DNA of 64,000 nt from a virus (taxonomy: Duplodnaviria; Heunggongvirae; Uroviricota; Caudoviricetes), in the IMG/VR virus record IMGVR_UViG_3300027896_000028. One strand, 5' to 3'. Positions within the stretch are counted from its first letter, which is position 1. Each line of letters begins with the position of its first letter. Position numbers and translations under genes: made by a program. Under the pieces are notes generated by a model. That model was not told the origin of the DNA. It did no database searches and saw only the letters and a program-made list of their open reading frames with translations. Below are positions 44,010 to 62,675 of the stretch, one piece after another.

Positions 44010-44573
44010 TTATTTCAGATAAGTGGCAAGTGTTTTTAGCGTTTCACTAAAGGAAACTGAAGACACTTTACAAATACCACCTAGCTTGCGTTCCACCATG
44101 CCGTATAGCCATTTACAGAGATTTTCCGAAGTTGGTACAAATTGCACCAATACTAACCCACCCGCCACTTCAATATGATGGGGCGCCGTTGATGGTGTTG
44201 GCGCGATACAATACTCTACGTGATCATTTACAACAACCGCTTGAACGGCATTGAGATCTAGTGCTGATACCTTATCGAGATTTGTTCGCGTGGAATTGAC
44301 AAAATCAATCGCCCACGGGTCTTCGAGATCTAAAATGGTTTTATGGTCCAGCTGATCATCTATAAACTTCTTAAACCAATTCAAATTAACATAATCAAGA
44401 AGCATGCCTTGCGGGTTAACCATTTCCCCTTCTAACTCCACTGTGATGATAGAGTTGTGGCCATGGCACCTCTTACATTTGCAAATAGAATTGTTTGAGA
44501 GTTCATCAGAAAGCTCTTGTTTCCAGACACGATGGGTGTAGCAGAGTTCGAATTGTTTTGAGATTTTATACAT
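44010..44573 (-). CDS. 6-carboxytetrahydropterin synthase (QueD/PTPS)-like protein
   Basis: 187 aa with a CxxxHGH motif (CKRCHGHNSIITVELEG). Confidence 0.6.
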   Translation of the reverse strand: MYKISKQFELCYTHRVWKQELSDELSNNSICKCKRCHGHNSIITVELEGEMVNPQGMLLDYVNLNWFKKFIDDQLDHKTILDLEDPWAIDFVNSTRTNLDKVSALDLNAVQAVVVNDHVEYCIAPTPSTAPHHIEVAGGLVLVQFVPTSENLCKWLYGMVERKLGGICKVSSVSFSETLKTLATYLK

Positions 44574-45324: not shown

Positions 45325-45624
45325 TTATTTGGGTGACATATCTGGATTTATAGCCCATTGAATGCATTTCATATCTGTGATATCCACTAAGCGGATACCG
45401 TTCTTCGTTTTAAAGGTAACATGGTTATCTACCTTAGGCGGTTCTATTTTAGGCTGACAATTATCGCAACGTTTGATGTGAAAATCCCAATGGCCACAAA
45501 CATCACAAAAAAAGCCACACGAAGGTTTCCCTTCATGCGGCTTGGACGGATCTGTATTGCCAGAATAAGGCATAAACAGTTTGAAAATGTAGTAGCTAAT
45601 ATCTGTTGTAGGATTTGTAGTCAT
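45325..45624 (-). CDS. cysteine-rich small protein
   Basis: 99 aa with CGFFCDVCGH...CDNC. Confidence 0.4.
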   Translation of the reverse strand: MTTNPTTDISYYIFKLFMPYSGNTDPSKPHEGKPSCGFFCDVCGHWDFHIKRCDNCQPKIEPPKVDNHVTFKTKNGIRLVDITDMKCIQWAINPDMSPK

Positions 45625-46694
45625 TACTTCTTGCTGTCATAGTGTTTGTTAATGATTTTAAAGCTCTTACCGCCTTTCATTTTAACGACAACACCCTCGA
45701 AAGGTACACCATTAATATTGTCAATACCTTCATCGTACTTCTTAATCAATTCAGGTGTTAAGACAACATCCTTCTCAATCATAGGAACTGTTTCAATGCC
45801 AAGAGCTTCGGCTACCTTTACATAGTAGTGTGGAGACTCAATACCTTCATACTGAAGTGTATTGAAATTATAAACGCTGAACAATGCAAAGCCTAATGGT
45901 TTACTAGAATGGGGGTTGATAGACATCTTCTGAATACCATTACCATACATCTCACCGCGTAAGGCTAAGCTGACTTTATGCTTAACGCAGTAATCTTTAA
46001 GCTTCGCAACCAAATCCTTTTCTTTAGCAATAGTGGTGTACTTGTTAACACATTCTGTCTTCAACTCCATGCTTCGAGTGGTGATACCAATATGGTAATG
46101 ACTCGACCAATCTGATGTCTCTAATTGAGCTGCTACCTCTTTACAGAAGACTGTCATGCTACTTCCATCGATTTTCAAAGTAACATCTACAACCTCGCCA
46201 TAAGGAATAGCATCCAAGTTCTGGTAACGCTCTTCATCTGTCTTGCCTAAGCCTGTAGGCAACGGACCTTTAGCATCCAAGTCTTGCGGTATTGGTGGCT
46301 CATATTTAGTGACACCAAGAATATCAGCAACATCCGCACCTTCTAAACCACCAACAACAGTTCCAGAGAATGCATTCATTCGCTCTATTTCAACCGTAGG
46401 AACAATACCCAATGATTCAACAATACCCATACTCCAACTGCCGCGAAGCTTTACAGCTTTCACGCGACTGGATTTGGCTTTGTAGAAAGCAGCCCATTCT
46501 TTATCAGGGAGAACAGTATCAGGCTGGATGAATACAATCAGTTCACCAACTTTATATTGATCACGCTTAACGATACACTGATAGCCCAACACCTTGACAA
46601 TGTCTAAAGTATCTGCATTGCTGTGATGAGCTACTTCTAAAATTTTTTCAATAGATGCGAGTTTCATATTCAAATTATAGCGATTATTTAGCAA
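45624..46694 (-). CDS. ATP-dependent RNA ligase (DraRnl/Rnl5-like: N-terminal OB/tRNA-binding-like domain plus C-terminal nucleotidyltransferase)
   Basis: 356 aa. The N-terminus EVAHHSNADTLDIVKVLGYQCIV resembles the tRNA-binding OB fold. Motif I is KIDGSS, motif IV PFEGVVVK and motif V KIINK. Confidence 0.65.
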   Translation of the reverse strand: MLNNRYNLNMKLASIEKILEVAHHSNADTLDIVKVLGYQCIVKRDQYKVGELIVFIQPDTVLPDKEWAAFYKAKSSRVKAVKLRGSWSMGIVESLGIVPTVEIERMNAFSGTVVGGLEGADVADILGVTKYEPPIPQDLDAKGPLPTGLGKTDEERYQNLDAIPYGEVVDVTLKIDGSSMTVFCKEVAAQLETSDWSSHYHIGITTRSMELKTECVNKYTTIAKEKDLVAKLKDYCVKHKVSLALRGEMYGNGIQKMSINPHSSKPLGFALFSVYNFNTLQYEGIESPHYYVKVAEALGIETVPMIEKDVVLTPELIKKYDEGIDNINGVPFEGVVVKMKGGKSFKIINKHYDSKK

Positions 46695-49750: not shown

Positions 49751-50167
49751 TTATTGTAATTTCCAATATCCGTAAACTCGTCTCCATCCCTTTGTTGTGT
49801 GAATTTTGTCATCATTCATCACACCATAAATGATTGCAACGACATGCTCTCTTAAGCTACAAATGATCTTACCTCTGGGCACCTTTCCATCTTCTAGTAT
49901 GAATGAGGGGGCTGTATACCAAACAAACCCCAGCTCTTTCATGTATCGCTTAAACCAAGCAGCTCGTGTCGAGATACCATCCATCACCGTACATGATGGA
50001 GTATGGTGTATAGATTTGCGCTGCTTAGCGTTACCTTCTGCTAGTCTATTGTACACCTGCTGATAAGGTAGGCCTGTAGCGATTGCTATAGAGCGACAAA
50101 CACAGTCTCCACCCTTACTGCGATAACCAGCAGCAGCTCTACCACCATCATTGAATTTAAATTTCAT
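49751..50167 (-). CDS. hypothetical protein
   Basis: 138 aa. Confidence 0.45.
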   Translation of the reverse strand: MKFKFNDGGRAAAGYRSKGGDCVCRSIAIATGLPYQQVYNRLAEGNAKQRKSIHHTPSCTVMDGISTRAAWFKRYMKELGFVWYTAPSFILEDGKVPRGKIICSLREHVVAIIYGVMNDDKIHTTKGWRRVYGYWKLQ

Positions 50168-50742
50168 TATACAACAGGTACAACCTTTAAAATAGCGTGG
50201 TGGTGTTTGTGCATAGGCTTTGGATTAAAAGCCTTCAACTTCTTCAGCTTAGGCCTCTTCCAACCCATCTCCTCAGGAGTCTTGCTACCCTTCTTGTTAT
50301 TACGCTTCTTATGCAACAGAGCAATATTGTTAGGGTCCTTCCTGCTACCACCACGGCTAATTGGGTCAAGATGGTCAAGAGATCTATCCTCAGGAGCAAG
50401 AATCTCACCAGTTACATAATCTCTACCACCATCGCGTTCAGAGATAGTCTTTAAGTTCACCTTAGCAGAACGCTTCGGCACTCTGTCATAGTTGACAGCA
50501 ACAATAACAGTTGGCATCCTAATCCTAGATACAGTGGTGTGGAGAGTCTCTTCAGCAGAGAGTGGTTCGAGCTTAATCCAATCTTCCCACTTGACAGGGT
50601 AGTACTCATCGTCATTGCGAAAGTCAAGAGCAGTCGCAGCGTCAATGAACATCTGCTTAATAGCGTCCTCGACAGTTACCTCATTAATGAGCTGCCAGTT
50701 CGAATTAAGTACAAATACTTTGCGTCTTAGAATATCAGACAT
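50167..50742 (-). CDS. HNH endonuclease
   Basis: 191 aa. RDGGRDYVTGE...LDHLDPISRGG...NIALLHKKRN follows the HNH His-Asn-His pattern, with a basic tail. Confidence 0.65.
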   Translation of the reverse strand: MSDILRRKVFVLNSNWQLINEVTVEDAIKQMFIDAATALDFRNDDEYYPVKWEDWIKLEPLSAEETLHTTVSRIRMPTVIVAVNYDRVPKRSAKVNLKTISERDGGRDYVTGEILAPEDRSLDHLDPISRGGSRKDPNNIALLHKKRNNKKGSKTPEEMGWKRPKLKKLKAFNPKPMHKHHHAILKVVPVV

Positions 50743-50830
50743 ATTGTTAATACAAAGAATATATGGTTTTCAGTCACTAATCAACTAAATTACACCGCGA
50801 AAAACAATATTTCGGGATTAAATATCTAAA

Positions 50831-51124
50831 ATGGCCTTTACAAATCAAAATTTATGTCGCAGCTTTAATGTAGCTGTAACCAACAGCCTTGTTTCTTTAA
50901 CTGCTCAGGATTGTACTGAAGTGGTGATTTATAATCAAGGACCATCTGCAGTATTGTTATTTGATAATGGATACACAGATGCATCTAATAGCTATATTGT
51001 TGCACCCTCTGCTTCATTCACAGTCAGGGGTATTACGAATAGTTCAGCGTTGAGCGCCCAGAGCATAGGGACATCTCAAGTGTATTACCGTACTCAGTAT
51101 TATCATGCACACGTGATTCGGTAA
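50831..51124 (+). CDS. hypothetical protein
   Basis: 97 aa. Confidence 0.45.
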   Translation: MAFTNQNLCRSFNVAVTNSLVSLTAQDCTEVVIYNQGPSAVLLFDNGYTDASNSYIVAPSASFTVRGITNSSALSAQSIGTSQVYYRTQYYHAHVIR

Positions 51125-51143
51125 GATTTCTAAACACAAAAAA

Positions 51144-51176
51144 AGCCTGTAGATTTCTCTACAGGCTTTTTTATTT
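51144..51176 (+). terminator. rho-independent terminator
   Basis: 10-bp stem AGCCTGTAGA/TCTACAGGCT followed by TTTTTTATTT, immediately after the stop of 50831..51124. Confidence 0.7.
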
Positions 51177-51283
51177 GGTCACCTCGACTAGACTCCCACT
51201 AGCATCTTCAACGTTAGGACCGTTGCGCTCTATTAAATTGAGCTACGAGGTGAAAAAGTGATTTTTAAGACTAAATATTTGAT

Positions 51284-51745
51284 ATGGCAACTATACGTCG
51301 TTCAGAAGAAAAGGTGCTCTCAGAAGCATACACTCAAGTTTTAAACACCGAAGGCTTCTTTGATCGAGTTGCTGCTACCGGAGCGGGTGTTATGCAGACA
51401 GCTAAGAATGTTGGTTCTGGTATTAAAGCTACTGGACAAGCTCTTACTGGTAATCTCGCAGGTGCACAAGCAACTGTTGCTAAAATGTCACCAGCAGACG
51501 ATGCTAAGATGCAATCTATTTTAAAGAATTCAGCTAAAAACTTTCTTACGGACATCTTCAAGCTTAAATTGATACCAGGTGCAGAAAATCTTCAACCACA
51601 GGATGTTGATATTAAGGCATTCATCACTGCTGTTGAACCTTTCCTTCAACAGTTAAAGGCTTCAAAGGCACCGGCTCCAGCCGCACCAGCAACTGGAACA
51701 ACTCCAGCAACTCCGGCCGCACCAGCAACTCCACCGGTAGCTTAA
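51284..51745 (+). CDS. Ala/Pro-rich protein
   Basis: 153 aa with a C-terminal PAAPATGTTPATPAAPATPP low-complexity tail. Confidence 0.5.
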   Translation: MATIRRSEEKVLSEAYTQVLNTEGFFDRVAATGAGVMQTAKNVGSGIKATGQALTGNLAGAQATVAKMSPADDAKMQSILKNSAKNFLTDIFKLKLIPGAENLQPQDVDIKAFITAVEPFLQQLKASKAPAPAAPATGTTPATPAAPATPPVA

Positions 51746-51749
51746 TAAA

Positions 51750-51782
51750 TGGCGGATGAGGAGGGAGTTCCACCCCCGGACG
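51750..51782 (-). other. tRNA 3'-end fragment (T-arm + acceptor 3' strand + CCA; Ser-like)
   Basis: The minus strand reads GGGGG-TGGAACT-CCCTC-CTCATCC-G-CCA. This closely resembles the 3' end of tRNA-Ser at 63778..63871. There is no 5' partner. Confidence 0.35.
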
Positions 51783-51847
51783 TTTTTTAGGCGTCGACTG
51801 TTTAGCAAACAGTTGTGTAAATGTGACATACACGTCTCATCCAAAAA

Positions 51848-51923
51848 TGGTACCCTAGGCCGGTCTTGCACCGGCACTTGACAGATTTTAAGTCTGTTGA
51901 CTCTGCTTTTGGTCTACTAGGGC
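51848..51923 (-). tRNA. tRNA-like gene, anticodon UAA (Leu-type anticodon but class I length; non-canonical D/T loops)
   Basis: 76 nt with an encoded CCA. Acceptor GCCCTAG/CTAGGGT (G1-U72), D-loop AAAAGCAG without GG, anticodon stem ACAGA/TCTGT, loop CUUAAAA, T-arm GCCGG-TGCAAGA-CCGGC, discriminator A. Confidence 0.55.
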
Positions 51924-52012
51924 GTCAAATAAACTCCCCCAGGATTACGCTTTGTTATAGGCCTCAGGGTCACCTGATTATTAGCTTTACAAGAGGCGCT
52001 GGAGGATTAAAA

Positions 52013-52089
52013 TGGTACTCCGGGTAGGACTTGCACCTACAACATTTGAGGTTTGAGCTCAACGACTCTTCTAATTGGTCTACCGGAGC
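52013..52089 (-). tRNA. tRNA-like gene, anticodon CAA (Leu-type anticodon, class I length; non-canonical D/T loops)
   Basis: 77 nt with CCA. Acceptor GCTCCGG/CCGGAGT (G1-U72), anticodon stem TTGAG/CTCAA, loop CUCAAAC, T-arm GTAGG-TGCAAGT-CCTAC, A73. Confidence 0.55.
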
Positions 52090-52090
52090 A

Positions 52091-52600
52091 TTAGTTGCTA
52101 CTAAAATCAGGATCAGTGAAATGAACGTGACCAGTCTTGTAATGTCTACGAGCTATTATCACATTTTCAAGTTCATTGATTGCATTCTTATCCGCTTCAA
52201 CTGTTTTAAATTGCTTGGTCGCTAACGACGTAATCAAGGGTATCGCTTGCTTTTGTACACCCTGTACAAACTCTTGAATTTTATCTAACTCTTCAGGGCT
52301 GAGAGTAGTTGGATCAAGTTTTAAGTGCTCTGATATATCGAGAAGAGCATCACCTAAGAGTCTACTAGTTATATCATCTACAACAATGTGGCTAGTAAAG
52401 AACCCTGCAGCGTCTCTAATCTCACCAGCAGCACAACTAGCGGCTACTTCTTCCTTTTCGTAATACTCACCTTCGATAATATCCTCTATTACTTTAAGAG
52501 TTCTGTCAATCAACATTCGAGGTGTAATATACCGCTGAGCATACTTCATCAGATCTTTACCGTTGTATGCTTCATTTATTAGATGATTGTCCAAGTTCAT
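52091..52600 (-). CDS. hypothetical protein
   Basis: 169 aa, acidic. Confidence 0.5.
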   Translation of the reverse strand: MNLDNHLINEAYNGKDLMKYAQRYITPRMLIDRTLKVIEDIIEGEYYEKEEVAASCAAGEIRDAAGFFTSHIVVDDITSRLLGDALLDISEHLKLDPTTLSPEELDKIQEFVQGVQKQAIPLITSLATKQFKTVEADKNAINELENVIIARRHYKTGHVHFTDPDFSSN

Positions 52601-52619
52601 AATATTATTTAGGCAAAAG

Positions 52620-52675
52620 TGGTCCTCCCAGCGAGACTCACACTCGCAACCTAGCCCTTATCGAGGGGTAGCTCT
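52620..52675 (-). other. tRNA 3' half (class II: anticodon-stem 3' strand, long variable arm, T-arm, acceptor, CCA)
   Basis: The minus strand reads GAGCT-ACCCCTCGATAAGGGCTAGG-GCGAG-TGTGAGT-CTCGC-TGGGAGG-A-CCA. It pairs with the 5' half at 53171..53200 (acceptor CCTCCTG/TGGGAGG and anticodon stem AGCTC/GAGCT). Confidence 0.45.
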
Positions 52676-52688
52676 ATTAAATAATTAT

Positions 52689-53087
52689 ATGAAGACATCT
52701 AATTGTTTAAATTGTAAAGTAACATTTAATTATAATGGCTCTAACTATCATGGTAAGTATTGCTCAAATAAATGCCAAGGAGAGTATAGACAGAAGCAAT
52801 ATCTGATAAATCTCAAATCTGGAGCATTAAACGGTAAGACTATAAATAGACCTAGTGTATATGCTCATTTAGTTCGTGAGAACGGTAATAGATGCGCTAT
52901 ATGCCTTACAGAAGGTATATGGAATGAAAAACCGTTGAGGTTATGGGTAGATCATATAGACGGCAATGCCTCCAATAATACCTGGACTAATTTTAGATTA
53001 ATATGTCCTAACTGTGAATCACAGTTAGATACATGCAGAGCTAAGAATAAAGGTAAGGGCAGAAAAGCCATCGGTATGAAATGGTAG
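52689..53087 (+). CDS. HNH homing endonuclease
   Basis: Track ORF 52587..53087; ATG chosen at MKTSNCLNC. N-terminal Cys4 finger, then NRCAICL...WVDHIDGNASNNTWTNFRLICPNCES (HNH). Its stop overlaps the 3' end of the tRNA at 53082. Confidence 0.7.
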   Translation: MKTSNCLNCKVTFNYNGSNYHGKYCSNKCQGEYRQKQYLINLKSGALNGKTINRPSVYAHLVRENGNRCAICLTEGIWNEKPLRLWVDHIDGNASNNTWTNFRLICPNCESQLDTCRAKNKGKGRKAIGMKW

Positions 53088-53156
53088 TCCTGGCAGGATT
53101 TTCGCCCGCAACCTGAGGGTTATATGCCCACTGCTCTAAAATTGAGCTACAGGACC
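53082..53156 (-). tRNA. tRNA-like gene, anticodon loop CAUAUAA (UAU, Ile-like, if canonical numbering applies)
   Basis: 75 nt with CCA. Acceptor GGTCCTG/CAGGACT (G1-U72), D-arm GCTC-AATTTTA-GAGC (TT in place of GG), T-loop CGAAAAT. A sits at position 33, which is atypical. Confidence 0.45.
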
Positions 53157-53170
53157 GTTAAATTTATAAA

Positions 53171-53200
53171 GAGCTTGCTCTACAATTGAGCTACAGGAGG
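53171..53200 (-). other. tRNA 5' half (acceptor 5' strand, D-arm, anticodon-stem 5' strand)
   Basis: The minus strand reads CCTCCTG-TA-GCTC-AATTGTA-GAGC-A-AGCTC. It is followed directly by an intact tRNA and is complementary to the 3' half at 52620..52675. Confidence 0.4.
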
Positions 53201-53203
53201 AAA

Positions 53204-53279
53204 TGGTAGACACGACAGGTCTTGCACCCGCACTAAGCCGGTCCTAAGCCGACTGCCTCTGCTTTTGGGCTACGTGTCC
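53204..53279 (-). tRNA. tRNA-like gene, anticodon UAG (Leu-type anticodon, class I length)
   Basis: 76 nt with CCA. Acceptor GGACACG/CGTGTCT (G1-U72), D-loop AAAAGCAGA, anticodon stem GTCGG/CCGGC, loop CUUAGGA, T-loop TGCAAGA, A73. Confidence 0.55.
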
Positions 53280-53286
53280 ATTAAAA

Positions 53287-53362
53287 TGGCAGCCTGTGAA
53301 GGACTTGCACCCTCAATTACCGTTCCGAAGACGGTAGTGATATCTAATTTCACCAACAGGCC
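53287..53362 (-). tRNA. tRNA-Arg (anticodon UCG), non-canonical D/T loops
   Basis: 76 nt with CCA. Acceptor GGCCTGT/ACAGGCT (G1-U72), D-arm GTGA-AATTAGATA-TCAC, anticodon stem ACCGT/ACGGT, loop CUUCGGA, T-arm GAGGG-TGCAAGT-CCTTC, G73. Confidence 0.6.
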
Positions 53363-53441
53363 ATGGAGCTGAATGTCGGTAATGCTCCGACTTATCTAGT
53401 TTACGAAACTAGTGCATCACTTTATATGCTTATCCAGCAAA

Positions 53442-54077
53442 TCAACTCTTTATATATTTAGAAGGAGGAAACTCTTCGTGGTAGTGATTTACACCACTTG
53501 TAAATAAACTCTTGTATGTATCATTCTTACCTAAACTAAGCAACCACTTTTCAGATGAATAATAATCAGTTGTATCACAGGTTGGCAACTGTTTGATATA
53601 CGAACTCTTTGCCCACCAAAAATTACCTGAGTAGTGTAATCCAAAACCAGGTGCATCCTGTTTATTAACACCAACTGTATTCATCTCCTCCAAAGCTTTA
53701 AAACACTCTTTCCACTCTTCTATAAGAAAGTACTCCATATAAGCTATCCAGCTATTAACAGGTACACTATCACATTTAGTAACACCTTTCGAGTGGATAT
53801 AAAGTATATTAGCTTCTGATTCTAAGTTTCGGCAAAACTCTCTAATGTAGTTAGTTGTTAACGATTCATTAGAAAACATAACCGGTGACAAACTGATAAC
53901 CTCTATCTTCGGATGCACTTTAAACTTCGGTGCATTTGACATATCACCGTTCAAGGAAACATATATCTTATCTACTGCGTCAATGAGACCACTCGATACG
54001 ATTTTATTATACGTCTTCAGGAAGCGTTCGTGGTAATCGTTTAAAGTTGATGAATGATAAAATATGTAACTTTGCAT
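53442..54077 (-). CDS. hypothetical protein
   Basis: 211 aa. Confidence 0.5.
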   Translation of the reverse strand: MQSYIFYHSSTLNDYHERFLKTYNKIVSSGLIDAVDKIYVSLNGDMSNAPKFKVHPKIEVISLSPVMFSNESLTTNYIREFCRNLESEANILYIHSKGVTKCDSVPVNSWIAYMEYFLIEEWKECFKALEEMNTVGVNKQDAPGFGLHYSGNFWWAKSSYIKQLPTCDTTDYYSSEKWLLSLGKNDTYKSLFTSGVNHYHEEFPPSKYIKS

Positions 54078-54131
54078 ATGGTTATTTTATAACATCTCTA
54101 TTTGTTATCAACTTTAATAAATGGCGGGAAA

Positions 54132-54392
54132 TTAATCAGGTTCAATGAATGATAAATCGTTTTGAAACCAAGATTCACCTTCATGATGTTTACAGCACTT
54201 ATTTGAGCAATAACCCCACCAATCTCCTTCATATTGAGGATGATCTTTGGTATCCCAATTACAGCAAACATGGATGATAGGCCAACCACAATCTTTGCAA
54301 TGTATACCTTCTGAAATTTCTATCGTCTCTGTGCTAGTTTTATATTTCAACTTATGCATAAATGGTGGGAATGATAGGATTTGCACATACAC
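54132..54392 (-). CDS. Cys/His-rich small protein
   Basis: 86 aa with CKDCGW...HVCCNW...CSNKCCKHHEG. Confidence 0.4.
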   Translation of the reverse strand: MYVQILSFPPFMHKLKYKTSTETIEISEGIHCKDCGWPIIHVCCNWDTKDHPQYEGDWWGYCSNKCCKHHEGESWFQNDLSFIEPD

Positions 54393-54446
54393 TGTTTACC
54401 TCCTCAAGGTAACGTCTCCTGCTAGTTGGACTACATTCCCGTAAAT

Positions 54447-54523
54447 TGGTGCGCTCGGAGGTAGTTGCAACCTCACCATATCCGGTTAAGAGCCGGGTGC
54501 CGGTCTACTGTAGCTTCAGGCGC
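54447..54523 (-). tRNA. tRNA-like element (anticodon loop CUCUUAA, CUU Lys-like); poor D-arm
   Basis: Ends in ACCA. T-arm GAGGT-TGCAACT-ACCTC, anticodon stem CCGG/CCGG, acceptor with one mismatch. The D-arm cannot be folded canonically. Confidence 0.3.
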
Positions 54524-54529
54524 ATTAAA

Positions 54530-54952
54530 TTATAACGACGATATACTCTGCGATAAGGCTGATTGTTTAAATGCTTCCATCTCTTCTTTGCTTGGTCGCA
54601 CTTCGACTCTTTCAGTCTTAAATTCTAGGTTAATAGACATATCAACATCAGAACCATCCAATGCTTTGATAGTCTTACCTTTAACAGGTCTCTCGTAAAC
54701 ACATTGCATATAGAAGACTTTGCCCATCTTCTTTGGTTTGATATCATCTAGTTGTTTACCTATCTCGAGCTGCTCTGTAAACCACTTATCACCGTCACGC
54801 ATTTCTTTCGGGCGCCCATTAGAAAAGTGAGCATTGAAGTATTCGAGGAGTTCTTCCTTTGTACCGACTAATATTTCAGCTTTTTGTATCATGGAATCAA
54901 TATAACAGATAAAGATATAAATGCAACTGAAGTTTAGAAATGGTCGCAGCAC
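54530..54952 (-). CDS. hypothetical protein
   Basis: 140 aa. GTG start, N-terminal hydrophobic segment. Confidence 0.45.
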   Translation of the reverse strand: MLRPFLNFSCIYIFICYIDSMIQKAEILVGTKEELLEYFNAHFSNGRPKEMRDGDKWFTEQLEIGKQLDDIKPKKMGKVFYMQCVYERPVKGKTIKALDGSDVDMSINLEFKTERVEVRPSKEEMEAFKQSALSQSISSL

Positions 54953-55015
54953 CCGGTGCTACCCCGGACTGAACTGGCTTATGAAACCTGCTCGATCGTT
55001 GGATCTACTGCGAAA

Positions 55016-55090
55016 TGGAGCCACCAGAAGGATATGCACCTTCCTGTCTGACTTACCAAGTCAGTTCATCGCTGTCTATGAGTTGGCGGC
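55016..55090 (-). tRNA. tRNA-Thr (anticodon GGU), non-canonical D/T loops
   Basis: 75 nt with CCA. Acceptor GCCGCCA/TGGTGGC, D-arm TCAT-AGACAGCG-ATGA, anticodon stem CTGAC/GTCAG, loop UUGGUAA, T-arm GAAGG-TGCATAT-CCTTC, U73. Confidence 0.6.
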
Positions 55091-55097
55091 GTTGTGA

Positions 55098-55499
55098 TTA
55101 ACAATTAATCAAATCAATATTCTGATCACCTGCAATGTTTACCAACCCGTTATCACCTGCGATGTTAAACAACTGACATGAATCACCAGGTGTTGGAGTA
55201 GGTGTTGGGGTAGGTGTGATCTCTGTCGGTGTCGGAGTCGGCAAAATCTCTGTCGGTGTTGGTGTGATCTCTGTCGGTGTCGGAGTCGGCAAAATCTCTG
55301 TCGGTGTTGGTGTGGTACCTGGTGTGGGTGGAACGTACAAGGTATGGCCTACTGTAGTAGCAGATGTGTTAGATATCTTAGGTTGTATACCTCTTGCTCT
55401 TCCACCAGCTCGCACTGATGCCGCTGCAGCTATTCTCGCCTCTGAACGCGTAGCTCTTGCTATTCTAATACTATCAAATTGTGATGGTGACTGTGCCAT
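55098..55499 (-). CDS. Pro/Thr-repeat protein
   Basis: 133 aa with TPTPTEILPTPTPTEITP tandem repeats. Encoded by a perfect 2 x 48-bp DNA tandem duplication. Confidence 0.5.
   Translation of the reverse strand: MAQSPSQFDSIRIARATRSEARIAAAASVRAGGRARGIQPKISNTSATTVGHTLYVPPTPGTTPTPTEILPTPTPTEITPTPTEILPTPTPTEITPTPTPTPTPGDSCQLFNIAGDNGLVNIAGDQNIDLINC
55213..55308. repeat. perfect 48-bp tandem duplication (2 copies)
   Basis: ggtgtgatctctgtcggtgtcggagtcggcaaaatctctgtcggtgtt occurs twice, back to back. Confidence 0.8.
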
Positions 55500-55518
55500 A
55501 CATATATTTATCTAAAAC

Positions 55519-55592
55519 TGGAGCTCAGTATTGGATTTGATCCGTCGTTTCAGTCTTACCAAGACCGTGTTCTGCTATTGAACTAACAAGGC
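55519..55592 (-). other. chimeric tRNA-like element (Thr-GGU-like 5' two-thirds + unrelated T-arm/acceptor 3' end with CCA)
   Basis: The 5' part is GCCTTGT-TA-GTTC-AATAGCA-GAAC-A-CGGTC-UUGGUAA-GACTG. The 3' part GGATCAAATCCAATACTGAGC-T-CCA does not pair with the 5' acceptor strand. Confidence 0.35.
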
Positions 55593-55595
55593 AAA

Positions 55596-55624
55596 TGGAG
55601 CTCAATATTGGATTTGCACCAATG
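55596..55624 (-). other. tRNA 3'-end fragment (T-arm ATTGG-TGCAAAT-CCAAT + acceptor 3' strand ATTGAGC + U + CCA)
   Basis: A direct repeat of the 3' end of the chimera. There is no 5' partner adjacent. Confidence 0.35.
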
Positions 55625-55655
55625 AATAATCGTTTTGAGTTCATTAAATAATTAT

Positions 55656-56435
55656 ATGACACAAAAAACAGGTATTTATACTAATTGTAAGCAATGTAAT
55701 AAGTCTATATATGTTACAAGAGGTGCAGCGAAGAAACGTCAAAATCATTTTTGTTCGCAGACATGCTCAGCAAAATACAATAACGCGCATAGAGCACCTA
55801 TGACAAGCAAGCAGAAGCAACAGAGATCAGATACCCTACGCAAATTTCATGGATTGCCTACACGAATATTGACACAACCAATTATGCCACTCGAACATCG
55901 ACTTAGTATATCTCGTGCTCACAGGGAAGGTAAGATTATGCAAAAGGAATATACTTGTAAGGTGTGCAATCAACTATTCATTTCACATAGGCAAGGCAAG
56001 GCATATTTTCCTACTGTTTGTTCAGATGAATGTCGCGGGCAACAATTAATTAAAAACGCGCACGGATGTAGATACATCTATAAAAACACCCATATGCAAT
56101 CTAGCTGGGAAGTTAGTATTGCAAAATTTCTTGATGAACAAGGTATAGAGTGGGTACGCCCTAAGTGTATACCTTACAAATATCTAGATGGAAAGATGAG
56201 AAATTATTTTGCTGATTTTTTTATACCATCTCTTAATTTATATGTAGATCCTAAAAATCCGATAATTGCCCGCATTCAAAAGGATAAGCTTCTTATTTTA
56301 GAAAAACAGATTGATCTTATCTATGGTACGGTGGATTTTCTCAAACAAGAAATACTTAAACGGGTTAAGAAGATGGAGCTAGGTGTCGGTGCTGCCCCGA
56401 CTAACTTCCGCTTTGCAGGCGGTGCCGTTTGCTGA
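55656..56435 (+). CDS. putative homing endonuclease (N-terminal Zn fingers + C-terminal Vsr/DUF559-like PD-(D/E)xK domain)
   Basis: Track ORF 55635..56435 (TTG start); ATG at MTQKTGIY chosen. It shares the upstream leader TTAAATAATTATATG with the HNH gene at 52689. The motif YFADFFIP...LYVDPKNP resembles the Vsr-like nuclease core. The C-terminal 20 codons run antisense through a tRNA. Confidence 0.55.
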   Translation: MTQKTGIYTNCKQCNKSIYVTRGAAKKRQNHFCSQTCSAKYNNAHRAPMTSKQKQQRSDTLRKFHGLPTRILTQPIMPLEHRLSISRAHREGKIMQKEYTCKVCNQLFISHRQGKAYFPTVCSDECRGQQLIKNAHGCRYIYKNTHMQSSWEVSIAKFLDEQGIEWVRPKCIPYKYLDGKMRNYFADFFIPSLNLYVDPKNPIIARIQKDKLLILEKQIDLIYGTVDFLKQEILKRVKKMELGVGAAPTNFRFAGGAVC

Positions 56436-56449
56436 TTCGGTAACCTAGC
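56374..56449 (-). tRNA. tRNA-Cys (anticodon GCA), non-canonical T-loop
   Basis: 76 nt with CCA. Acceptor GCTAGGT/ACCTAGC (perfect), U8 A9, anticodon stem CCGC/GCGG, loop CUGCAAA, T-arm GTCGG-GGCAGCA-CCGAC, U73. Confidence 0.5.
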
Positions 56450-56550
56450 TTAAGACGAGTCCCTTAGCTTCTTGGGTAACTGAGCATTAAATGGGGTGAC
56501 CGGTGGGTAATTACTTCGATTTTATCACCCCATCAGATATAAGTATTAAT

Positions 56551-57282
56551 ATGAAGACAACAGTAAGCTGTCCGATGTGTAAAACGGCTTTCAAACAACT
56601 AACTAATAGCCATTTTAAGCGGTGTCATAATACTACAATACACGATATAAAAATACAATTCCCTAATATTCAATTAAAATCGGATGCAACATATTCATTA
56701 GAATGCAAACAAATGGTATTAAAACGCCATTTAGCTGTTAAATTTAAAAATACAGAAAAGAAACAACGAGTTATTGAATATAATTCTAATCCTAAATGCT
56801 GTCAACAATGCTCAAAACCTATTTCATATACGAATAAGCGTTATGCTGATTTTTGTTCACATAAATGTGCAGCTGTTTTTAATAAATCACATCTCAGTTT
56901 TTCAGTTAAACGTAGTAAGGCTGAGATGTATATGGAACGGTTACTAACGAAATCTTTTCCTCTTATACCCATTGAAACAAACAACAGAAGTGTGCTCTCA
57001 ACTAAATTTGAAATTGATATATTATTACCAACGATTAAACTAGCTATTGAAATAAATGGGCCGACTCATTTTATACCAGTTCATGGTGATGAGATTCTTA
57101 AAAAAATACAGAATAGAGATTTACAGAAGGTATTAGAACTCCAGAAATTAAATTATACTTTTTTTGTTATTGATATAAGTCAGTTTACAAATTTTGAAAA
57201 GACTGTGAAATATCTTGATATTATATTCATTAAACAAATTAAGCCTTTTATTGAGCAGTATCAAAAAGAAATGGTCAGGTAG
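56551..57282 (+). CDS. putative homing endonuclease (Zn finger + Vsr/DUF559-like PD-(D/E)xK domain), paralog of 55656..56435
   Basis: Track ORF 56503..57282 (GTG start); the ATG at MKTTVSCPMCK has the same ATGAAGACA context as the HNH gene at 52689. The motif FEIDILLP...LAIEINGPTHF is a D...(E/Q)xK-like core. Its stop overlaps the tRNA at 57272. Confidence 0.55.
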   Translation: MKTTVSCPMCKTAFKQLTNSHFKRCHNTTIHDIKIQFPNIQLKSDATYSLECKQMVLKRHLAVKFKNTEKKQRVIEYNSNPKCCQQCSKPISYTNKRYADFCSHKCAAVFNKSHLSFSVKRSKAEMYMERLLTKSFPLIPIETNNRSVLSTKFEIDILLPTIKLAIEINGPTHFIPVHGDEILKKIQNRDLQKVLELQKLNYTFFVIDISQFTNFEKTVKYLDIIFIKQIKPFIEQYQKEMVR

Positions 57283-57348
57283 GTGGGATTTGCACCCACA
57301 CAGTTCCCTTCACAGAGGAAGATGCTAACTATTACATCACGTACCTGA
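57272..57348 (-). tRNA. tRNA-like gene with enlarged or irregular anticodon loop (anticodon unresolved)
   Basis: 77 nt ending in CCA. Acceptor TCAGGTA/TACCTGA, D-arm GATG...CATC, T-arm GTGGG-TGCAAAT-CCCAC. The anticodon region TTCC-UCUGUGAAG-GGAA folds only with an 8-9-nt loop. Confidence 0.4.
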
Positions 57349-57354
57349 ATAATC

Positions 57355-57423
57355 TGGAGCCAAGCCGGACATTGCAGTCCGCATCCTCGTTTACAAAACG
57401 AGCGTAGGTAGCTTACGCAAGGC
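57355..57423 (-). tRNA. tRNA-Thr-like (anticodon UGU), 5' region shortened (possible pseudo-tRNA)
   Basis: 69 nt with CCA. Perfect anticodon stem CTCGT/ACGAG with loop UUUGUAA, T-arm CGGAC-TGCAATG-GTCCG. The acceptor has two U-U mismatches and a 3-bp D-stem. Confidence 0.4.
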
Positions 57424-57427
57424 AAAA

Positions 57428-57502
57428 TGGAGCCCCATGAAAGATTTGCGCTTTCCTTTCCGGATTACAAAGCCGGTGCATCGCTGTCTATGCTTATAGG
57501 GC
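57428..57502 (-). tRNA. tRNA-Thr (anticodon UGU), non-canonical D/T loops
   Basis: 75 nt with CCA. Acceptor GCCCTAT/ATGGGGC, D-arm GCAT-AGACAGCG-ATGC, anticodon stem CCGG(C)/(U)CCGG, loop UUUGUAA, T-arm GAAAG-CGCAAAT-CTTTC, U73. Confidence 0.55.
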
Positions 57503-57539
57503 GTAAAATATGCAGATGTTTTGCTAACACTTGCATAAA

Positions 57540-57613
57540 TGGTAGGGGATAGAGGTAACGCTCCTCTGTCCTGTCGGTGTAAGCGACTCGCTCTGCTTTT
57601 GAGCTAACCCCCC
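57540..57613 (-). tRNA. tRNA-Val (anticodon UAC), non-canonical D/T loops
   Basis: 74 nt with CCA. Acceptor GGGGGGT/ATCCCCT (G1-U72), D-arm GCTC-AAAAGCA-GAGC, anticodon loop CUUACAC, T-arm AGAGG-AGCGTTA-CCTCT, A73. Confidence 0.55.
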
Positions 57614-57620
57614 ATGAAAA

Positions 57621-57923
57621 TTAAACTTGGCCTGGTCCCGTATTCTGCATCTCACAATCCTCATCTCCACCTACTTCTTCTTTTGCAGACCATTTTTCAT
57701 CGGCTTCGACTGTGTGCATGCCAATAAGTTCTTTAGCAAGGTGCAATATATCCTCTAAAACATACACCGGGTCTTGGCGTTCATCATCACTATTGAGATG
57801 ATCTTCGATTAAAGAAATAATTGCTTTACCAATCTGAACCTCACGCTTCTCTTCAGGATTAGACATATTGGTTTCATCATGCTCTACGTACAATCTATAA
57901 ATTTTGTCGGAATCGTTTGTCAT
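57621..57923 (-). CDS. acidic hypothetical protein
   Basis: 100 aa, Asp/Glu-rich. Confidence 0.45.
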   Translation of the reverse strand: MTNDSDKIYRLYVEHDETNMSNPEEKREVQIGKAIISLIEDHLNSDDERQDPVYVLEDILHLAKELIGMHTVEADEKWSAKEEVGGDEDCEMQNTGPGQV

Positions 57924-57943
57924 ACTAATATTTATGTATTTTA

Positions 57944-58609
57944 TTACAACTTTAAGGCTTTATCAACTTCTGATTTTTGTTTTTTACTGACACCCGCTTT
58001 ATGCATCACTTCATTACGCTTCATAGTGTCCATTATATTATCATCTATATGAATGACATCTGCAGCGGTTTTTGTTATCGCATTTGGTATTGCGGTCTTA
58101 CTAGTTACTACTGTTGTATCAATATTACACGTTTGTTTAAGATCCTCTATACACGATAAGAGCTCAGAAGTAAACACTTCGTCTGTCACAATATACAAGT
58201 GAGATATGTCATTAAATTCATTGTCTCTATCGCGAACCCAATCATGTAGGCATACAATATTTGAATGTGAGTTAACACGTACAGTATTCAATATTTTGTT
58301 CATTGCCTTGTATGGGTTTGAACTATGCTTAATTTCATGAACAGAGCGTACTTCGTTATCATATATTACAACGGTTACATCAGTGTTCAACTCTCCTATC
58401 TTATATGAAACCCACTGTAACTGAGTCATTATTGCCCAACCGTTTGATCTAGTTCGATATGACAGTGAAGCACTGGATGTATCAACAGCAATAACCAGTC
58501 TCGATTTCTTAGCTTTCGGTTTAACAAATTTCTTACCTGGTTCAAGCTTGAGCTCGGGTTGTATTGTTTGATAGGCTTCGACTAGAAGCGATGTATCCTT
58601 ATTGCTCAT
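57944..58609 (-). CDS. VWA-like domain protein (putative)
   Basis: 221 aa. LVIAVDTSSAS resembles a MIDAS DxSxS motif. Confidence 0.45.
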   Translation of the reverse strand: MSNKDTSLLVEAYQTIQPELKLEPGKKFVKPKAKKSRLVIAVDTSSASLSYRTRSNGWAIMTQLQWVSYKIGELNTDVTVVIYDNEVRSVHEIKHSSNPYKAMNKILNTVRVNSHSNIVCLHDWVRDRDNEFNDISHLYIVTDEVFTSELLSCIEDLKQTCNIDTTVVTSKTAIPNAITKTAADVIHIDDNIMDTMKRNEVMHKAGVSKKQKSEVDKALKL

Positions 58610-59421
58610 AAATTCATTGCATCAATTACGGTACCCATATCTTCCGGTTTAACACCAGATGAAATTGCATCGTGTTGCTTCTTAGATAGCTCTTTACCGT
58701 TTATATAGTAACCATGATGCAAATCGACCCGCTTAAATTCTACTGCTGGTCCATCCATACGGTGGTTTATAGTACAACCAGCATCTTTATAGTATAGTGT
58801 TACGAATCCTTTATCATCTTTACACAATTTTTCACCAGAAACTTTGTCAGTATAACCTACTATGTTTATAACATCTGTCATCTTTTTCCAACCTGTTACA
58901 AAGTATATACGAGTTTGACCTGCACCCCGTGATGTAAATTCCTTACGGGCATATATAAATGGTTCGCCATCTATTGTACCTGGTATATAAAACGATAATA
59001 GGTATCCTTTAGGTCCTTTTATCGGGTCGTAAGTCTCACCTTTATATAGAGAAGGTACAGTGTAAACAATACCTTGATACTCAACTTTTTGATCTATTGT
59101 AGATCTATTTACCTTAAATTTATTGAGATTATTGCGTGTTACAGAGCTCAGAGGTGCAGTATCAAGTGGAAATATCCAACCCGGTGAATGCTTTACAACT
59201 TTAGATTTACCAACAGTTAAGTTGATATCGTTATCAAAGATTTTGTCGCTGTACTTTGCCCACTTAGCTTCAGTAGCAGTACCCTCATACAACATTACCA
59301 GATTCTTATTGTCCGTCTTGTTTGCGCATCTCATTGACATACGGTAAATTCTTAACTTTTCTTTTAGCAGGGTTTCTGATACGCTTTGTAGGTGTTTCTT
59401 GATCCTCTTCCTGAGGTGCAC
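58606..59421 (-). CDS. hypothetical protein
   Basis: 271 aa, basic N-terminus. Confidence 0.5.
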   Translation of the reverse strand: MHLRKRIKKHLQSVSETLLKEKLRIYRMSMRCANKTDNKNLVMLYEGTATEAKWAKYSDKIFDNDINLTVGKSKVVKHSPGWIFPLDTAPLSSVTRNNLNKFKVNRSTIDQKVEYQGIVYTVPSLYKGETYDPIKGPKGYLLSFYIPGTIDGEPFIYARKEFTSRGAGQTRIYFVTGWKKMTDVINIVGYTDKVSGEKLCKDDKGFVTLYYKDAGCTINHRMDGPAVEFKRVDLHHGYYINGKELSKKQHDAISSGVKPEDMGTVIDAMNL

Positions 59422-59487
59422 GATGGGGCACAGGCATTGCTGCTATATTGTTAATGTGCTGCTGTATCTTATTAATATCCATCATAA

Positions 59488-60870
59488 TTATTTGGTACCT
59501 TTATCTAAAGATGCTTGAGCACGTGTCCAATCCTTTGACATAAACGATTTAAACGGCTCAACGTTCTTATTATCAAGTATAGTCTTAAATAGCGTAGCAG
59601 TTATCATATTATCCACTCTATTAAGTTTACTAAAGAAAACGTTCATCCATTCTTCATCAAGTTCGTGTAGGATACCGCACATCTCAGCGGCAACTTTTAT
59701 CTGTGTTTTCTTATCAGCTCCCATCAGTCTCTTTTGAAGCTCTGATGTGCAGCGTGAAAGAACACCATGGAGTTGATCAGTGCTAACACCTTCCGTCTCC
59801 TTGGTGTTCTTTTTCAAACCGATATGCTTCTTAGGGTTAGATACTAACTTATCCCAATCGAAATGACGCATATAACGCAAGTGCGCCATAAATCTACGAG
59901 ACCATGCTGGGCCACATGACTCACCAGCAGCTATTTCAATCTCTGTCATCGGATCGTAACTCAACTTACCATTACTCGCTTTGAAATCTTTATAGATTTC
60001 CTCCATATCTTCACTCAATGTAACAAACGAGCGAGGACATGCAAACTGATTATCGAAAGAAGGTTTCTCGTAGAAATTCTTTTCTGGATCAATTTCAACA
60101 AACTCACAGATGTATTCACTAATATTATTCATTCGTGCCCACTTTAGCCAAGTTGGAGCATCTGCAACCATTATACCAGCTTTAAAACGACTGGTTAAAG
60201 CGATCGGAAGTGGTTCATTGAAATCTGCACCTAAGTTACCTGCAGCAACAATACCCCAATCATCATTCATCTTCAAGTTACCAATCTTGCGATCTAATAC
60301 TAACTGAAATAGCGCCTTTTGTACAGCTTGGTGACCTTGATTTATTTCATCAAGGAAAAGCATACCAGATGAAGAAGGTATACCCATGATATATGCATAA
60401 AGCTGTGGCTTCATCTCGAGATATTCCTTCCTGCTTCTGATATCAATAATACCCGTAATGTCAGAAGGTTCTAACATCGCTGTGCGAATATCCCAAAAGA
60501 AGAAGTAATCTTTATAGAGGTTGTTATCGATAATATGACGCTGTTCATCAACACTTAATAATGCCCAGTCAACTACTTTACGCTTACCACCAAGTTTCTG
60601 ATCGACTATTCTTGCTAAATCGTTAGCTGATTCTTTAATCACAGCAGTTTTACCAAGACCAGGATCACCATAAACAAGCACAGATCTATGAGTCTTAAAA
60701 CCTCTGACAATAGAACGAACGGTTTGTTCAATTGAACGCTCAACTAGGTTCTTTTCCGCATGAGAGTGTGTAGGTGTATTAGTATCTGGAAACTCAGAGA
60801 TATCGATAGCATCTTCCTCTGCATATTCACAGAGTTTTCTAAAAGTATCGATTGTTTTGAAGGCTCTCAT
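59488..60870 (-). CDS. AAA+ ATPase (MoxR/AAA_5-like)
   Basis: 460 aa. Walker A VLVYGDPGLGKTAV, Walker B MLFLDEINQG and a sensor AAGN. Confidence 0.65.
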   Translation of the reverse strand: MRAFKTIDTFRKLCEYAEEDAIDISEFPDTNTPTHSHAEKNLVERSIEQTVRSIVRGFKTHRSVLVYGDPGLGKTAVIKESANDLARIVDQKLGGKRKVVDWALLSVDEQRHIIDNNLYKDYFFFWDIRTAMLEPSDITGIIDIRSRKEYLEMKPQLYAYIMGIPSSSGMLFLDEINQGHQAVQKALFQLVLDRKIGNLKMNDDWGIVAAGNLGADFNEPLPIALTSRFKAGIMVADAPTWLKWARMNNISEYICEFVEIDPEKNFYEKPSFDNQFACPRSFVTLSEDMEEIYKDFKASNGKLSYDPMTEIEIAAGESCGPAWSRRFMAHLRYMRHFDWDKLVSNPKKHIGLKKNTKETEGVSTDQLHGVLSRCTSELQKRLMGADKKTQIKVAAEMCGILHELDEEWMNVFFSKLNRVDNMITATLFKTILDNKNVEPFKSFMSKDWTRAQASLDKGTK

Positions 60871-60874
60871 ATAT

Positions 60875-62254: not shown

Positions 62255-62277
62255 ACTATTATTTATGTCTTCTTAAA

Positions 62278-62353
62278 TGGCGCTTGTATCTGAAGTTGCA
62301 TCAGAAATTTAACCTTCGCAGGGTTATGTGATATCTATTTTCACCATACAAGC
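62278..62353 (-). tRNA. tRNA-Arg (anticodon GCG), non-canonical D/T loops
   Basis: 76 nt with CCA. Perfect acceptor GCTTGTA/TACAAGC, D-arm GTGA-AAATAGATA-TCAC, anticodon stem TAACC/GGTTA, loop CUGCGAA, T-arm TCTGA-TGCAACT-TCAGA, G73. Confidence 0.6.
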
Positions 62354-62387
62354 AAACCGGCGCTCTATCTAACTGAGCTACTCGAGC
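62354..62387 (-). other. tRNA 5' half fused upstream of tRNA-Arg(GCG)
   Basis: The minus strand reads GCTCGAG-TA-GCTC-AGTTAGATA-GAGC-G-CCGGT-UU and then runs directly into the next tRNA. There is no 3' partner adjacent. Confidence 0.35.
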
Positions 62388-62388
62388 A

Positions 62389-62580: not shown

Positions 62581-62599
62581 ATTATTATTTAGTCTTAAA

Positions 62600-62674: not shown

Positions 62675-62675
62675 A

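Follow-up and report, generated by a model that had tools for sequence, protein, structure and literature searches.

Type I tRNA-Leu genes with a short variable loop in the tRNA/tmRNA cluster of a large phage

The 64,000-nucleotide stretch of IMG/VR virus record IMGVR_UViG_3300027896_000028 (Caudoviricetes) analysed here, referred to as the window, carries between positions 51848 and 53279 three tRNA genes with the leucine anticodons UAA, CAA and UAG and a discriminator A73 that lack the long variable arm. The question raised by this locus is what such genes are, with the original prediction offering three answers: unusual Leu tRNAs, decoders that insert another amino acid or decoys for anticodon nucleases. 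It had set out from the premise that bacterial tRNA-Leu are class II, which is over-generalised in that type I tRNA-Leu with a short variable loop are known in bacteria, the one in Streptomyces coelicolor being leucylated (PMC6614811). The first of the three answers is supported by the family signature, covariance-model scores and covariation described below. The genes are very probably genuine phage tRNA-Leu of type I architecture that would act as working Leu decoders and form a full isoacceptor set in a cluster of tRNA and transfer-messenger RNA (tmRNA) genes, with gene structure, fold, family membership and a loss of the arm confined to Leu being established directly. Since the type I family is already documented the window genes are uncommon rather than new.

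Gene structure, fold and family of the short tRNA-Leu genes

ARAGORN called ten tRNAs in the whole window at its default threshold, among them tRNA-Leu(UAA) at 51848-51923, tRNA-Leu(CAA) at 52013-52089, tRNA-Leu(UAG) at 53204-53279 and a fourth gene of class I length, tRNA-Leu(GAG) at 54363-54440, which was missing from the original prediction; all four lie on the minus strand. The Rfam tRNA model RF00005 (gathering score 29 bits, E-values for the whole window) matched the UAA, CAA and UAG genes over model positions 1-71 with 48.5 bits (E = 2.6e-07), 49.6 bits (E = 1.3e-07) and 40.4 bits (E = 4.3e-05), respectively, and the GAG gene with 42.3 bits. The anticodons of the first three were placed identically by ARAGORN and Rfam, and the presence of three tRNAs of class I length with Leu anticodons, A73 and no long arm is thereby borne out. 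Including an encoded CCA end these genes are 76, 77 and 76 nt long (73, 74 and 73 nt plus CCA) with the GAG gene being 78 nt (75 nt plus CCA), and A73 is present in all four. The variable loops, for which 4-5 nt had been proposed, are short as claimed and measure 5 nt without a stem in every case (CAAGU in UAA, AUGUU in CAA, UUAGU in UAG and ACAGU in GAG).

The anticodon loops are of 7 nt with U33 (CUUAAAA in UAA, CUCAAAC in CAA, CUUAGGA in UAG and UUGAGGA in GAG) and position 37 follows the rule for Leu, with A37 after A36 in the UAA and CAA genes and G37 in the UAG and GAG genes. The UAA gene has G1-U72, U8, A9 and a 3-bp D stem (GAC/GUC). The G1-U72 wobble is found in the UAA, CAA and UAG genes and likewise in 13 of the 22 short phage tRNA-Leu aligned below, with the actinobacterial chromosomal type I members inspected having mostly G1-C72. 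The T-loop is UGCAAGA in the UAA and UAG genes, with G55, and UGCAAGU in the CAA gene. The unusual D-loop that had been noticed in two of the genes, CAAAAGCAGA, was indeed common to UAA and UAG, with that of the CAA gene being CAAUUAGAAGA; the corresponding D-loop in E. coli tRNA-Leu is GAAUUGGUAGA. In the GAG gene the D-loop ends in AGGA and not AGA. Together the anticodons UAA, CAA, UAG and GAG make a non-redundant set sufficient for the six Leu codons.

The short-variable-loop cloverleaf is conserved beyond this phage. In an alignment of 22 short tRNA-Leu from 13 phage genomes 98.9% of cells were paired, with compensatory double changes in 19 of the 20 pairs and a covariation score of 0.945 compared with 0.22 for shuffled alignments (0 of 500 reaching 0.945) and 0.11-0.17 for slid controls, in which 35-43% of cells were paired. 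The invariant columns of this alignment were U8, A9, C12, C13, A14, A22, G23, U33, A35, U48, C56 and A73.

A D-arm pattern taken from the window genes recovered three IMG/VR contigs with short tRNA-Leu genes, and a BLAST search of GenBank phages with the UAA gene gave matches that were overwhelmingly annotated as tRNA-Leu with the best at 74-84% identity. Inspection of fifteen annotated tRNA-Leu genes from eleven phages identified eleven of 73-77 nt in nine phages, namely Bacillus phage P59 (two genes), Synechococcus phage S-CREM1, Prochlorococcus phages P-SSM7 and P-RSM6, Myxococcus phage Mx1, Rhizobium phage P106B, Lactobacillus phages LP65 (two annotated, one examined in detail) and Bacchae, and Rhodococcus phage Trina, in which the UAA gene is short and the CAA and UAG genes are long. 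The architecture of the short genes comprises U8, A9, a 3-bp D stem, C13, A14, A15, a 9-12-nt D-loop ending in (G)CAGA, A73 and a 5-nt variable loop usually ending in AGU, whereas long phage tRNA-Leu have G9 in place of A9 and a purine at position 13 in place of C13, with the class II tRNA-Leu of phages Trina, Mel-JY01 and Mosig having a variable region of 11-15 nt. The resulting family signature (U8, A9, 3-bp D stem, C13, A14, A15, a D-loop end of GCAGA or GAAGA, U48 and A73), the positions of which vary little or not at all both in the 22-sequence alignment and in that of the 49 sequences behind model R1 (below), is present in the UAA, CAA and UAG genes of the window. The short genes of cultured phages also resemble those of the window in being 73-75 nt without CCA and in lying in tRNA clusters together with long Ser and Tyr tRNAs; they differ in number, one or two per genome (usually UAA) in most of these phages, and in their canonical GG/UUC elbow, whereas the window phage has four with A18/G55 (see below). 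The literature search found no paper that addressed the phage type I tRNA-Leu genes specifically.

The same signature was used to scan bacteria, one genome per species, and 105 loci were examined among the matches listed. ARAGORN identified 102 of the 105 as tRNA-Leu of 73-78 nt, the anticodons being UAA (55), CAA (25), UAG (17) and CAG (7), such that at least 100 bacterial species, the majority of them Actinomycetota, have a type I tRNA-Leu. Most of the examined loci are on high-G+C actinomycetotal chromosomes, including complete ones, in genera such as Nocardia, Amycolatopsis, Arthrobacter, Nocardioides, Corynebacterium, Microbacterium and Bifidobacterium, with the type I gene being the sole tRNA of the locus (up to 8 kb) in 86 of the 105 and about ten being dense tRNA arrays on contigs of metagenome-assembled genomes (MAGs) from other phyla. 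A73 was present in all 98 distinct bacterial sequences among the matches listed. The actinobacterial chromosomal genes share with the window genes the signature GUAGCCCAA..GGCAGAGGC ... AGUG, and the model built from these relatives (below) scores the window genes at 64-75 bits; the window genes differ in being phage-borne, in a 40% G+C setting and in having A18/G55 for G18/U55.

In IMG/VR the signature identified at least 120 viral contigs with short tRNA-Leu, complete type I sets being found elsewhere, for example five short Leu genes on one 447-kb contig. The 120 listed loci held 166 short and 26 long Leu tRNAs, counts that are biased to the short form because the loci were found by the short-Leu signature, together with 53 long and one short Ser tRNA and 24 long and no short Tyr tRNAs, a contrast that is free of this bias. 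The window phage follows the same pattern. Its class II tRNA-Ser(GCU) at 51750-51842 (minus strand; ARAGORN at relaxed threshold) and tRNA-Ser(UGA) at 63778-63871 (minus strand; an Rfam tRNA-Sec-like match of 28.4 bits) were both identified from sequence and fold as having a long variable arm and G73, and its Ser tRNAs (93-94 nt) and Tyr tRNA (86 nt) retain long arms. The loss of the arm is specific to Leu in this phage with the Ser tRNAs serving as in-genome controls, and no class II tRNA-Leu was seen in the approximately 80 kb examined, which comprised the window and about 8 kb of neighbouring sequence on each side obtained through the contigs L016 and L017.

Membership of the family was assessed with a covariance model (R1) trained on 49 type I tRNA-Leu (39 bacterial and 10 of cultured phages), a set that left out the window and its closest IMG/VR relatives. 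The UAA, CAA and UAG genes scored 74.7, 68.2 and 64.3 bits, respectively, with R1, the top three scores in the window and far above those with RF00005, while every non-Leu window tRNA matched by R1 scored lower with it than with RF00005 (56.6 and 74.1 bits for Met/Ile2(CAU), 34.1 and 47.2 for Phe, and 22.5 and 41.2 for His). Class II phage tRNA-Leu reached 47-54 bits with R1. These scores place the UAA, CAA and UAG genes specifically within the type I tRNA-Leu family. With 49.9 bits from R1 compared with 42.3 from RF00005, the GAG gene stands below the Met(CAU) tRNA on the R1 scale and would count as a marginal member. An origin of the genes from another isotype by anticodon mutation was rejected, the BLAST matches of the UAA gene being overwhelmingly tRNA-Leu and the D arm of the Leu type.

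Leucine identity and the meaning of the Leu codons

An experimentally studied counterpart is found in S. coelicolor, where four type II tRNA-Leu are accompanied by a single type I species, tRNA-Leu(CAA), whose variable loop is 5 nt long, and a single leucyl-tRNA synthetase (LeuRS) charges both types (PMC6614811; Fan et al., 2019, NAR 47:6369). The 5-nt length of the loop and U8-A14 are important for leucylation of the type I tRNA, the D/T elbow plays a minor role with a delta-U55/delta-C56 mutant still being active, A73 is not used by this LeuRS and the leucine-specific domain of the enzyme confers type I charging (PMC6614811). Deletion of the type I gene could not be achieved and type I tRNA-Leu were described as rare in prokaryotes (PMC6614811). 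The window genes share with the S. coelicolor tRNA a Leu anticodon, the stemless 5-nt variable loop, U8-A14, a class-II-style 3-bp D stem with a long D-loop and the ACCA end, the difference being that the window phage has four type I genes and no class II Leu in the sequence examined.

For E. coli LeuRS the determinants are A73, A14, A15-U48, G18G19, A20a and tertiary pairs of the elbow, with the anticodon and long arm being dispensable, whereas for Ser the size of the arm is a major determinant (PMC9976931). The loss of the arm in Leu tRNAs only fits this difference, SerRS (seryl-tRNA synthetase) unlike LeuRS needing the long arm. The arm-independent E. coli determinants A73, A14, A15-U48 and an A20a-type AGA end of the D-loop are present in the window genes; G18 and U55 are absent. 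Class II tRNA-Leu of the E. coli type are similar to the window genes in their 3-bp D stem, unpaired 13/22, 10-12-nt D-loop ending in AGA, A14, A15-U48 and A73, in having A37 or G37 according to codon box and in G1-U72, which is found in E. coli tRNA-Leu(UAA) (PMC6614811), and differ in the long arm (a stem-loop of more than 10 nt), G9 and a purine at 13 where the window genes have a 5-nt loop, A9 and C13. In Mycobacterium tuberculosis long variable loops are confined to tRNA-Leu-2, -3 and -5 (PMC11541572, the MenT3 paper).

Animal mitochondrial tRNA-Leu likewise have a short variable region with A73 and A14 as identity elements (PMC9976931), and human mitochondrial LeuRS charges Streptomyces type I tRNA-Leu with S. 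coelicolor LeuRS failing on human mitochondrial tRNA-Leu(UUR) (PMC6614811). The mitochondrial tRNAs differ from the window genes in having reduced and idiosyncratic D and T loops, and the two share no specific sequence relationship.

As LeuRS ignores the anticodon, the identity of the window tRNAs rests on other features, such that Leu anticodons could be carried by tRNAs charged with a different amino acid, altering the meaning of UUR and CUN. The unusual shape of the tRNAs is all that speaks for such re-coding; the conservation of A73 and of a Leu-type D arm speaks against it. All six Leu codons are in use in the phage (11-23% each) and their meaning was read from two of its genes. In NAMPT (2143-3759) the sites of UUG, CUG, CUC and CUU are occupied by Leu in 71-94% of residues across 100 homologues compared with 3.7% at other codons. 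This gene has no UUA or CUA codons and the comparison was therefore repeated on a VWA/DUF2201 protein (60875-62254), for which 74 homologues of 25-47% identity showed all six codons to be enriched for Leu (0.28-0.72 compared with 0.05 elsewhere), with Leu the commonest residue at five of 10 UUA and three of six CUA sites. In both proteins the Leu codon sites fall mostly on Leu or hydrophobic columns. On the evidence of these alignments the Leu codons have their standard meaning in this phage; the proposal of re-coded decoders is not supported, being largely refuted by the two genes, and is extremely unlikely.

The A18/G55 elbow and the case for decay or decoys

The shared D-loop CAAAAGCAGA matches the family consensus CAAnnGGCAGA except for A in place of G18, a change that is general in this phage and extends beyond Leu. 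Nearly every tRNA of the phage has a D-loop without GG (..AGC/AGA..) and G55 for U55, with T-loops of the form UGCAA.. or AGCGUUA, and G19-C56 is retained in the A18/G55 tRNAs. The canonical elbow (G18-U55 and G19-C56) is usual in the type I family without being a defining feature of it, and the window genes do not have it. Among 341 tRNAs from the window and a set of loci retrieved for comparison, GG with U55 was found in 296, AG with G55 in 31, AG with U55 in four and GG with G55 in two, the covariation of A18 with G55 being highly significant (Fisher p = 6e-37). Occurrences of the A18/G55 variant within this set were confined to phage contigs and tRNA arrays. Besides the window phage they comprise the loci L001, L003, L028, L063, L110 and L124, with further type I tRNA-Leu carrying the variant in L001, L003 and L028, and with L028, a contig of a Verrucomicrobiaceae MAG, having G55 in 14 of 15 tRNAs. 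Judged from the sequences, the A18/G55 pair has replaced the G18-Psi55 tertiary contact in a coordinated manner. No paper was found in a literature search on an A18/G55 elbow.

The absence of G18 and U55 could also be taken as a sign that the genes are decaying pseudogenes, or that they are decoys or sponges to which anticodon nucleases or other proteins that bind tRNA are drawn. Degenerate tRNA-like pieces are found in the cluster (a fragment at 52618-52680 and a tRNA with A33 at 53085-53156, described below) and several of its tRNAs fall below the default threshold of ARAGORN, in keeping with such a view. Set against it are the statistics of the elbow itself, A18/G55 behaving as a coordinated pair rather than as decay, and the state of the Leu genes, in which the helices are all intact and U33, the matching purine 37, the encoded CCA and A73 are kept. 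Moreover, many phages preserve the architecture through compensatory changes, in S. coelicolor it is essential, and the four anticodons are exactly a non-redundant set for six codons. For a decoy nothing specific was found, the genes having all the features of a working decoder, and we consider decoys or decay to be very unlikely.

The interpretation of the genes as working type I tRNA-Leu has several points against it. When folded singly by minimum free energy (MFE), the UAA and GAG genes fail to form cloverleaves and CAA and UAG do so roughly, and the z-scores are modest at -1.6 to -4.1. As these folds are only partly cloverleaf, comparative evidence from covariation and covariance-model scores was relied upon instead. 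The GAG gene has one mismatch in the T stem and is the weakest member, its gain with the family model being only marginal. E. coli LeuRS is unable to leucylate S. coelicolor type I tRNA-Leu(CAA) (PMC6614811), such that charging of the phage tRNAs would depend on the LeuRS of the host. In addition, A18/G55 replaces G18/U55 in the window tRNAs and G18:U55 contributes to Leu identity in E. coli (PMC9976931). Lastly, neither LeuRS nor any other aminoacyl-tRNA synthetase was found by Pfam among approximately 50 scanned open reading frames (ORFs) of the window, the sequence seen amounting to roughly half of the 157-kb genome, and no synthetase domain was found in its three largest ORFs (871, 710 and 832 aa).

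With these points taken into account the type I decoder reading, in which the phage would supply the genes as one component of an almost full tRNA set of its own, remains the one we favour, and it implies the following course of events. The tRNAs would be transcribed with the cluster and processed, and as the CCA end is encoded no CCA addition would be needed. They would then be leucylated by the host LeuRS, bacterial LeuRS ignoring the anticodon and, where tested, not needing the long arm. The charged tRNAs would decode the Leu codons (UUR and CUN) of the phage, which are used almost evenly. The benefit to the phage may lie in independence from the host tRNA pool, possibly during an attack on host tRNAs, a setting suggested by the RNA ligase and repair genes nearby.

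The tRNA cluster and its genome setting

The window is part of a 157,201-bp phage contig, for which a protein identical to that encoded at 60875-62254 is recorded, with a genome G+C content of 40%, which is unlike typical Actinomycetota. The tRNA cluster starts near 51.1 kb with its in-window part (51176-63871, minus strand; ARAGORN and Rfam at relaxed thresholds) comprising about 20 tRNA genes and interspersed small ORFs, and extends past the window end by about 8 kb. The extension was read from L016, another assembly of the same phage (identical over the 4 kb of window overlap that was checked) that reaches 8.25 kb beyond the window and adds Arg(UCU), Gln, Asn, Gly, two Pro, Asp, Glu(CUC), Ile(GAU), the 86-nt class II Tyr(GUA) and a tmRNA. 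In all, the cluster has more than 30 tRNA genes and the tmRNA on the minus strand spread over more than 20 kb. The tmRNA lies inside the cluster just past the window end (L016 6582-6963, plus strand, or approximately 65292-65673, minus strand, in window numbering; RF00023, 120 bits, E = 4e-47), and the tag peptide predicted for it by ARAGORN is atypical. Several of the cluster tRNAs were missed by ARAGORN at its default threshold.

An ORF for a putative HNH endonuclease lies among the tRNA genes at 52689-53087 on the plus strand (Pfam HNH_3, E = 3.5e-4, below the curated cut-off) and is context that is separate from the tRNAs; HNH genes are also found inside or beside the related tRNA clusters of phage Mx1 and of mycobacterial arrays (PMC6582537). 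It is flanked by the 3' tRNA fragment at 52618-52680 (minus strand), which consists of a T arm and ..GGACCA, resembles the 3' half of the tRNA at 53085-53156 and is apparently left over from a duplication or from a rearrangement mediated by an endonuclease. The tRNA at 53085-53156 (minus strand) is complete with the anticodon UAU (Ile), has A33 instead of U33 and was not called by ARAGORN. Directly upstream of tRNA-Leu(GAG) a degenerate tRNA-like gene at 54450-54523 (minus strand) has the loop CUCUUAA, corresponding to Lys(CUU), an ACCA end and a poor D arm, and was detected by a custom model only (26.8 bits). Far from the cluster a solitary CAU tRNA at 24494-24569 (minus strand) scores 74 bits and is canonical, with a GG/UUC elbow, U1-A72 and a host-like look; we take it to resemble tRNA-Ile2 of the lysidine type and it could help to identify the host.

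Arrays of tRNA genes in bacterial genomes and MAG contigs, such as the mycobacterial one with a short-variable-loop tRNA-Leu(TAG) and an HNH gene (PMC6582537; Behra et al., 2019), are similar to that of the window in their dense tRNAs, short Leu, long Ser and Tyr and an internal HNH gene, and some of them, such as L028, share the A18/G55 elbow. They differ in being found in cellular assemblies, where they may have originated from phages or other mobile elements, whereas in the window the array belongs to a 157-kb contig of phage-like character and has ORFs between its tRNA genes. No close relative was detected in GenBank phages by megablast with positions 50000-56000, and a protein search against phages gave only 27-31% matches, to AAA ATPases of jumbo phages.

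Other genes of the window include a gene pair inside the tRNA cluster for a MoxR-like AAA ATPase and the DUF2201 metallopeptidase/VWA protein (59488-62254, minus strand), with a pyrimidine-dimer glycosylase (62676-62999) just upstream of it. A PTPS (6-pyruvoyl tetrahydropterin synthase) family protein that is possibly QueD-like (44010-44573, minus strand; Pfam), a dihydrofolate reductase (21910-22455, plus strand) and an ATP-dependent DNA ligase (7765-8880, minus strand) are ordinary auxiliary genes of large phages. A block of genes related to NAD metabolism (2143-6099, minus strand) comprises NAMPT, the G+C content of which is higher than that of its surroundings, a nucleoside 2-deoxyribosyltransferase-like gene (4234-4731), NADAR (4715-5206) and a ribose-phosphate pyrophosphokinase-like gene (5203-6099), and is presumably akin to the NAD+ reconstitution pathways by which phages counter NAD-depleting defences.

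A group of minus-strand genes of RNA-repair type was also recognised by Pfam, with an OB-fold RNA ligase at 45624-46694, a "Swiss Army Knife" HAD domain as in RNA repair proteins at 32778-33257, two calcineurin-like metallophosphoesterases at 35087-35725 and 42089-42556, and a Macro domain at 36417-36872. These may constitute a tRNA repair system against anticodon nucleases, and the fit of the RNA ligase and repair genes with phages that face tRNA-damaging defences is circumstantial. They bear on a further possibility that would add to the type I decoder reading, in which the tRNAs are still Leu decoders and the arm-less shape and, in this lineage, the A18/G55 elbow are an adaptation that evades tRNA-directed toxins of host or phage origin that grip the long arm or the canonical elbow. 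Translation of the phage would then go on when the class II tRNAs of the host are inactivated. The five proteins are suggestive of an RNA-damage arms race, genes for RNA or tRNA ligases adjoin tRNA-Leu in phages P-SSM7 and Mel-JY01, and toxins that read the long variable loop exist with human SLFN11 and SLFN14 being described as cleaving type II tRNAs selectively. No bacterial toxin specific for class II tRNA-Leu was identified in this analysis, however, and these phages have not lost the arms of their Ser and Tyr tRNAs, which would hence still be exposed. The preponderance of short over long Leu tRNAs in the viral loci (166 to 26) points in the direction of evasion only in so far as the selection of these loci by the short-Leu signature allows, a bias that counts against its use. 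Moreover, type I tRNA-Leu is a normal core gene in Actinomycetota, which makes a defence story unnecessary, and evasion of this kind is on balance unlikely.

It is conceivable, if quite unlikely, that phages and tRNA arrays systematically favour arm-less Leu tRNAs and that this lineage has in addition rebuilt the elbow as A18-G55 across nearly all of some 30 tRNAs, creating a private tRNA pool that would go unseen by tRNA-directed nucleases and toxins of host or phage and perhaps by elbow-modifying enzymes of the host. If true, the short Leu tRNAs would be one visible part of an immune-evasive translation kit that includes the tmRNA, the RNA ligase and the repair enzymes. The A18/G55 elbow across the whole tRNA set of the phage is the least explained feature of the system, and the inability of E. 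coli LeuRS to charge the Streptomyces type I tRNA makes the compatibility of the host LeuRS with the phage tRNAs a concrete question. The type I architecture itself is already documented in bacteria and present in public phage annotations, with the breadth of its occurrence in phages being under-appreciated. For annotation, a tRNA of 73-75 nt with a Leu anticodon, A73 and the combination C13/..GCAGA/..AGU48 is a normal type I tRNA-Leu and neither a mis-call nor evidence for recoding.

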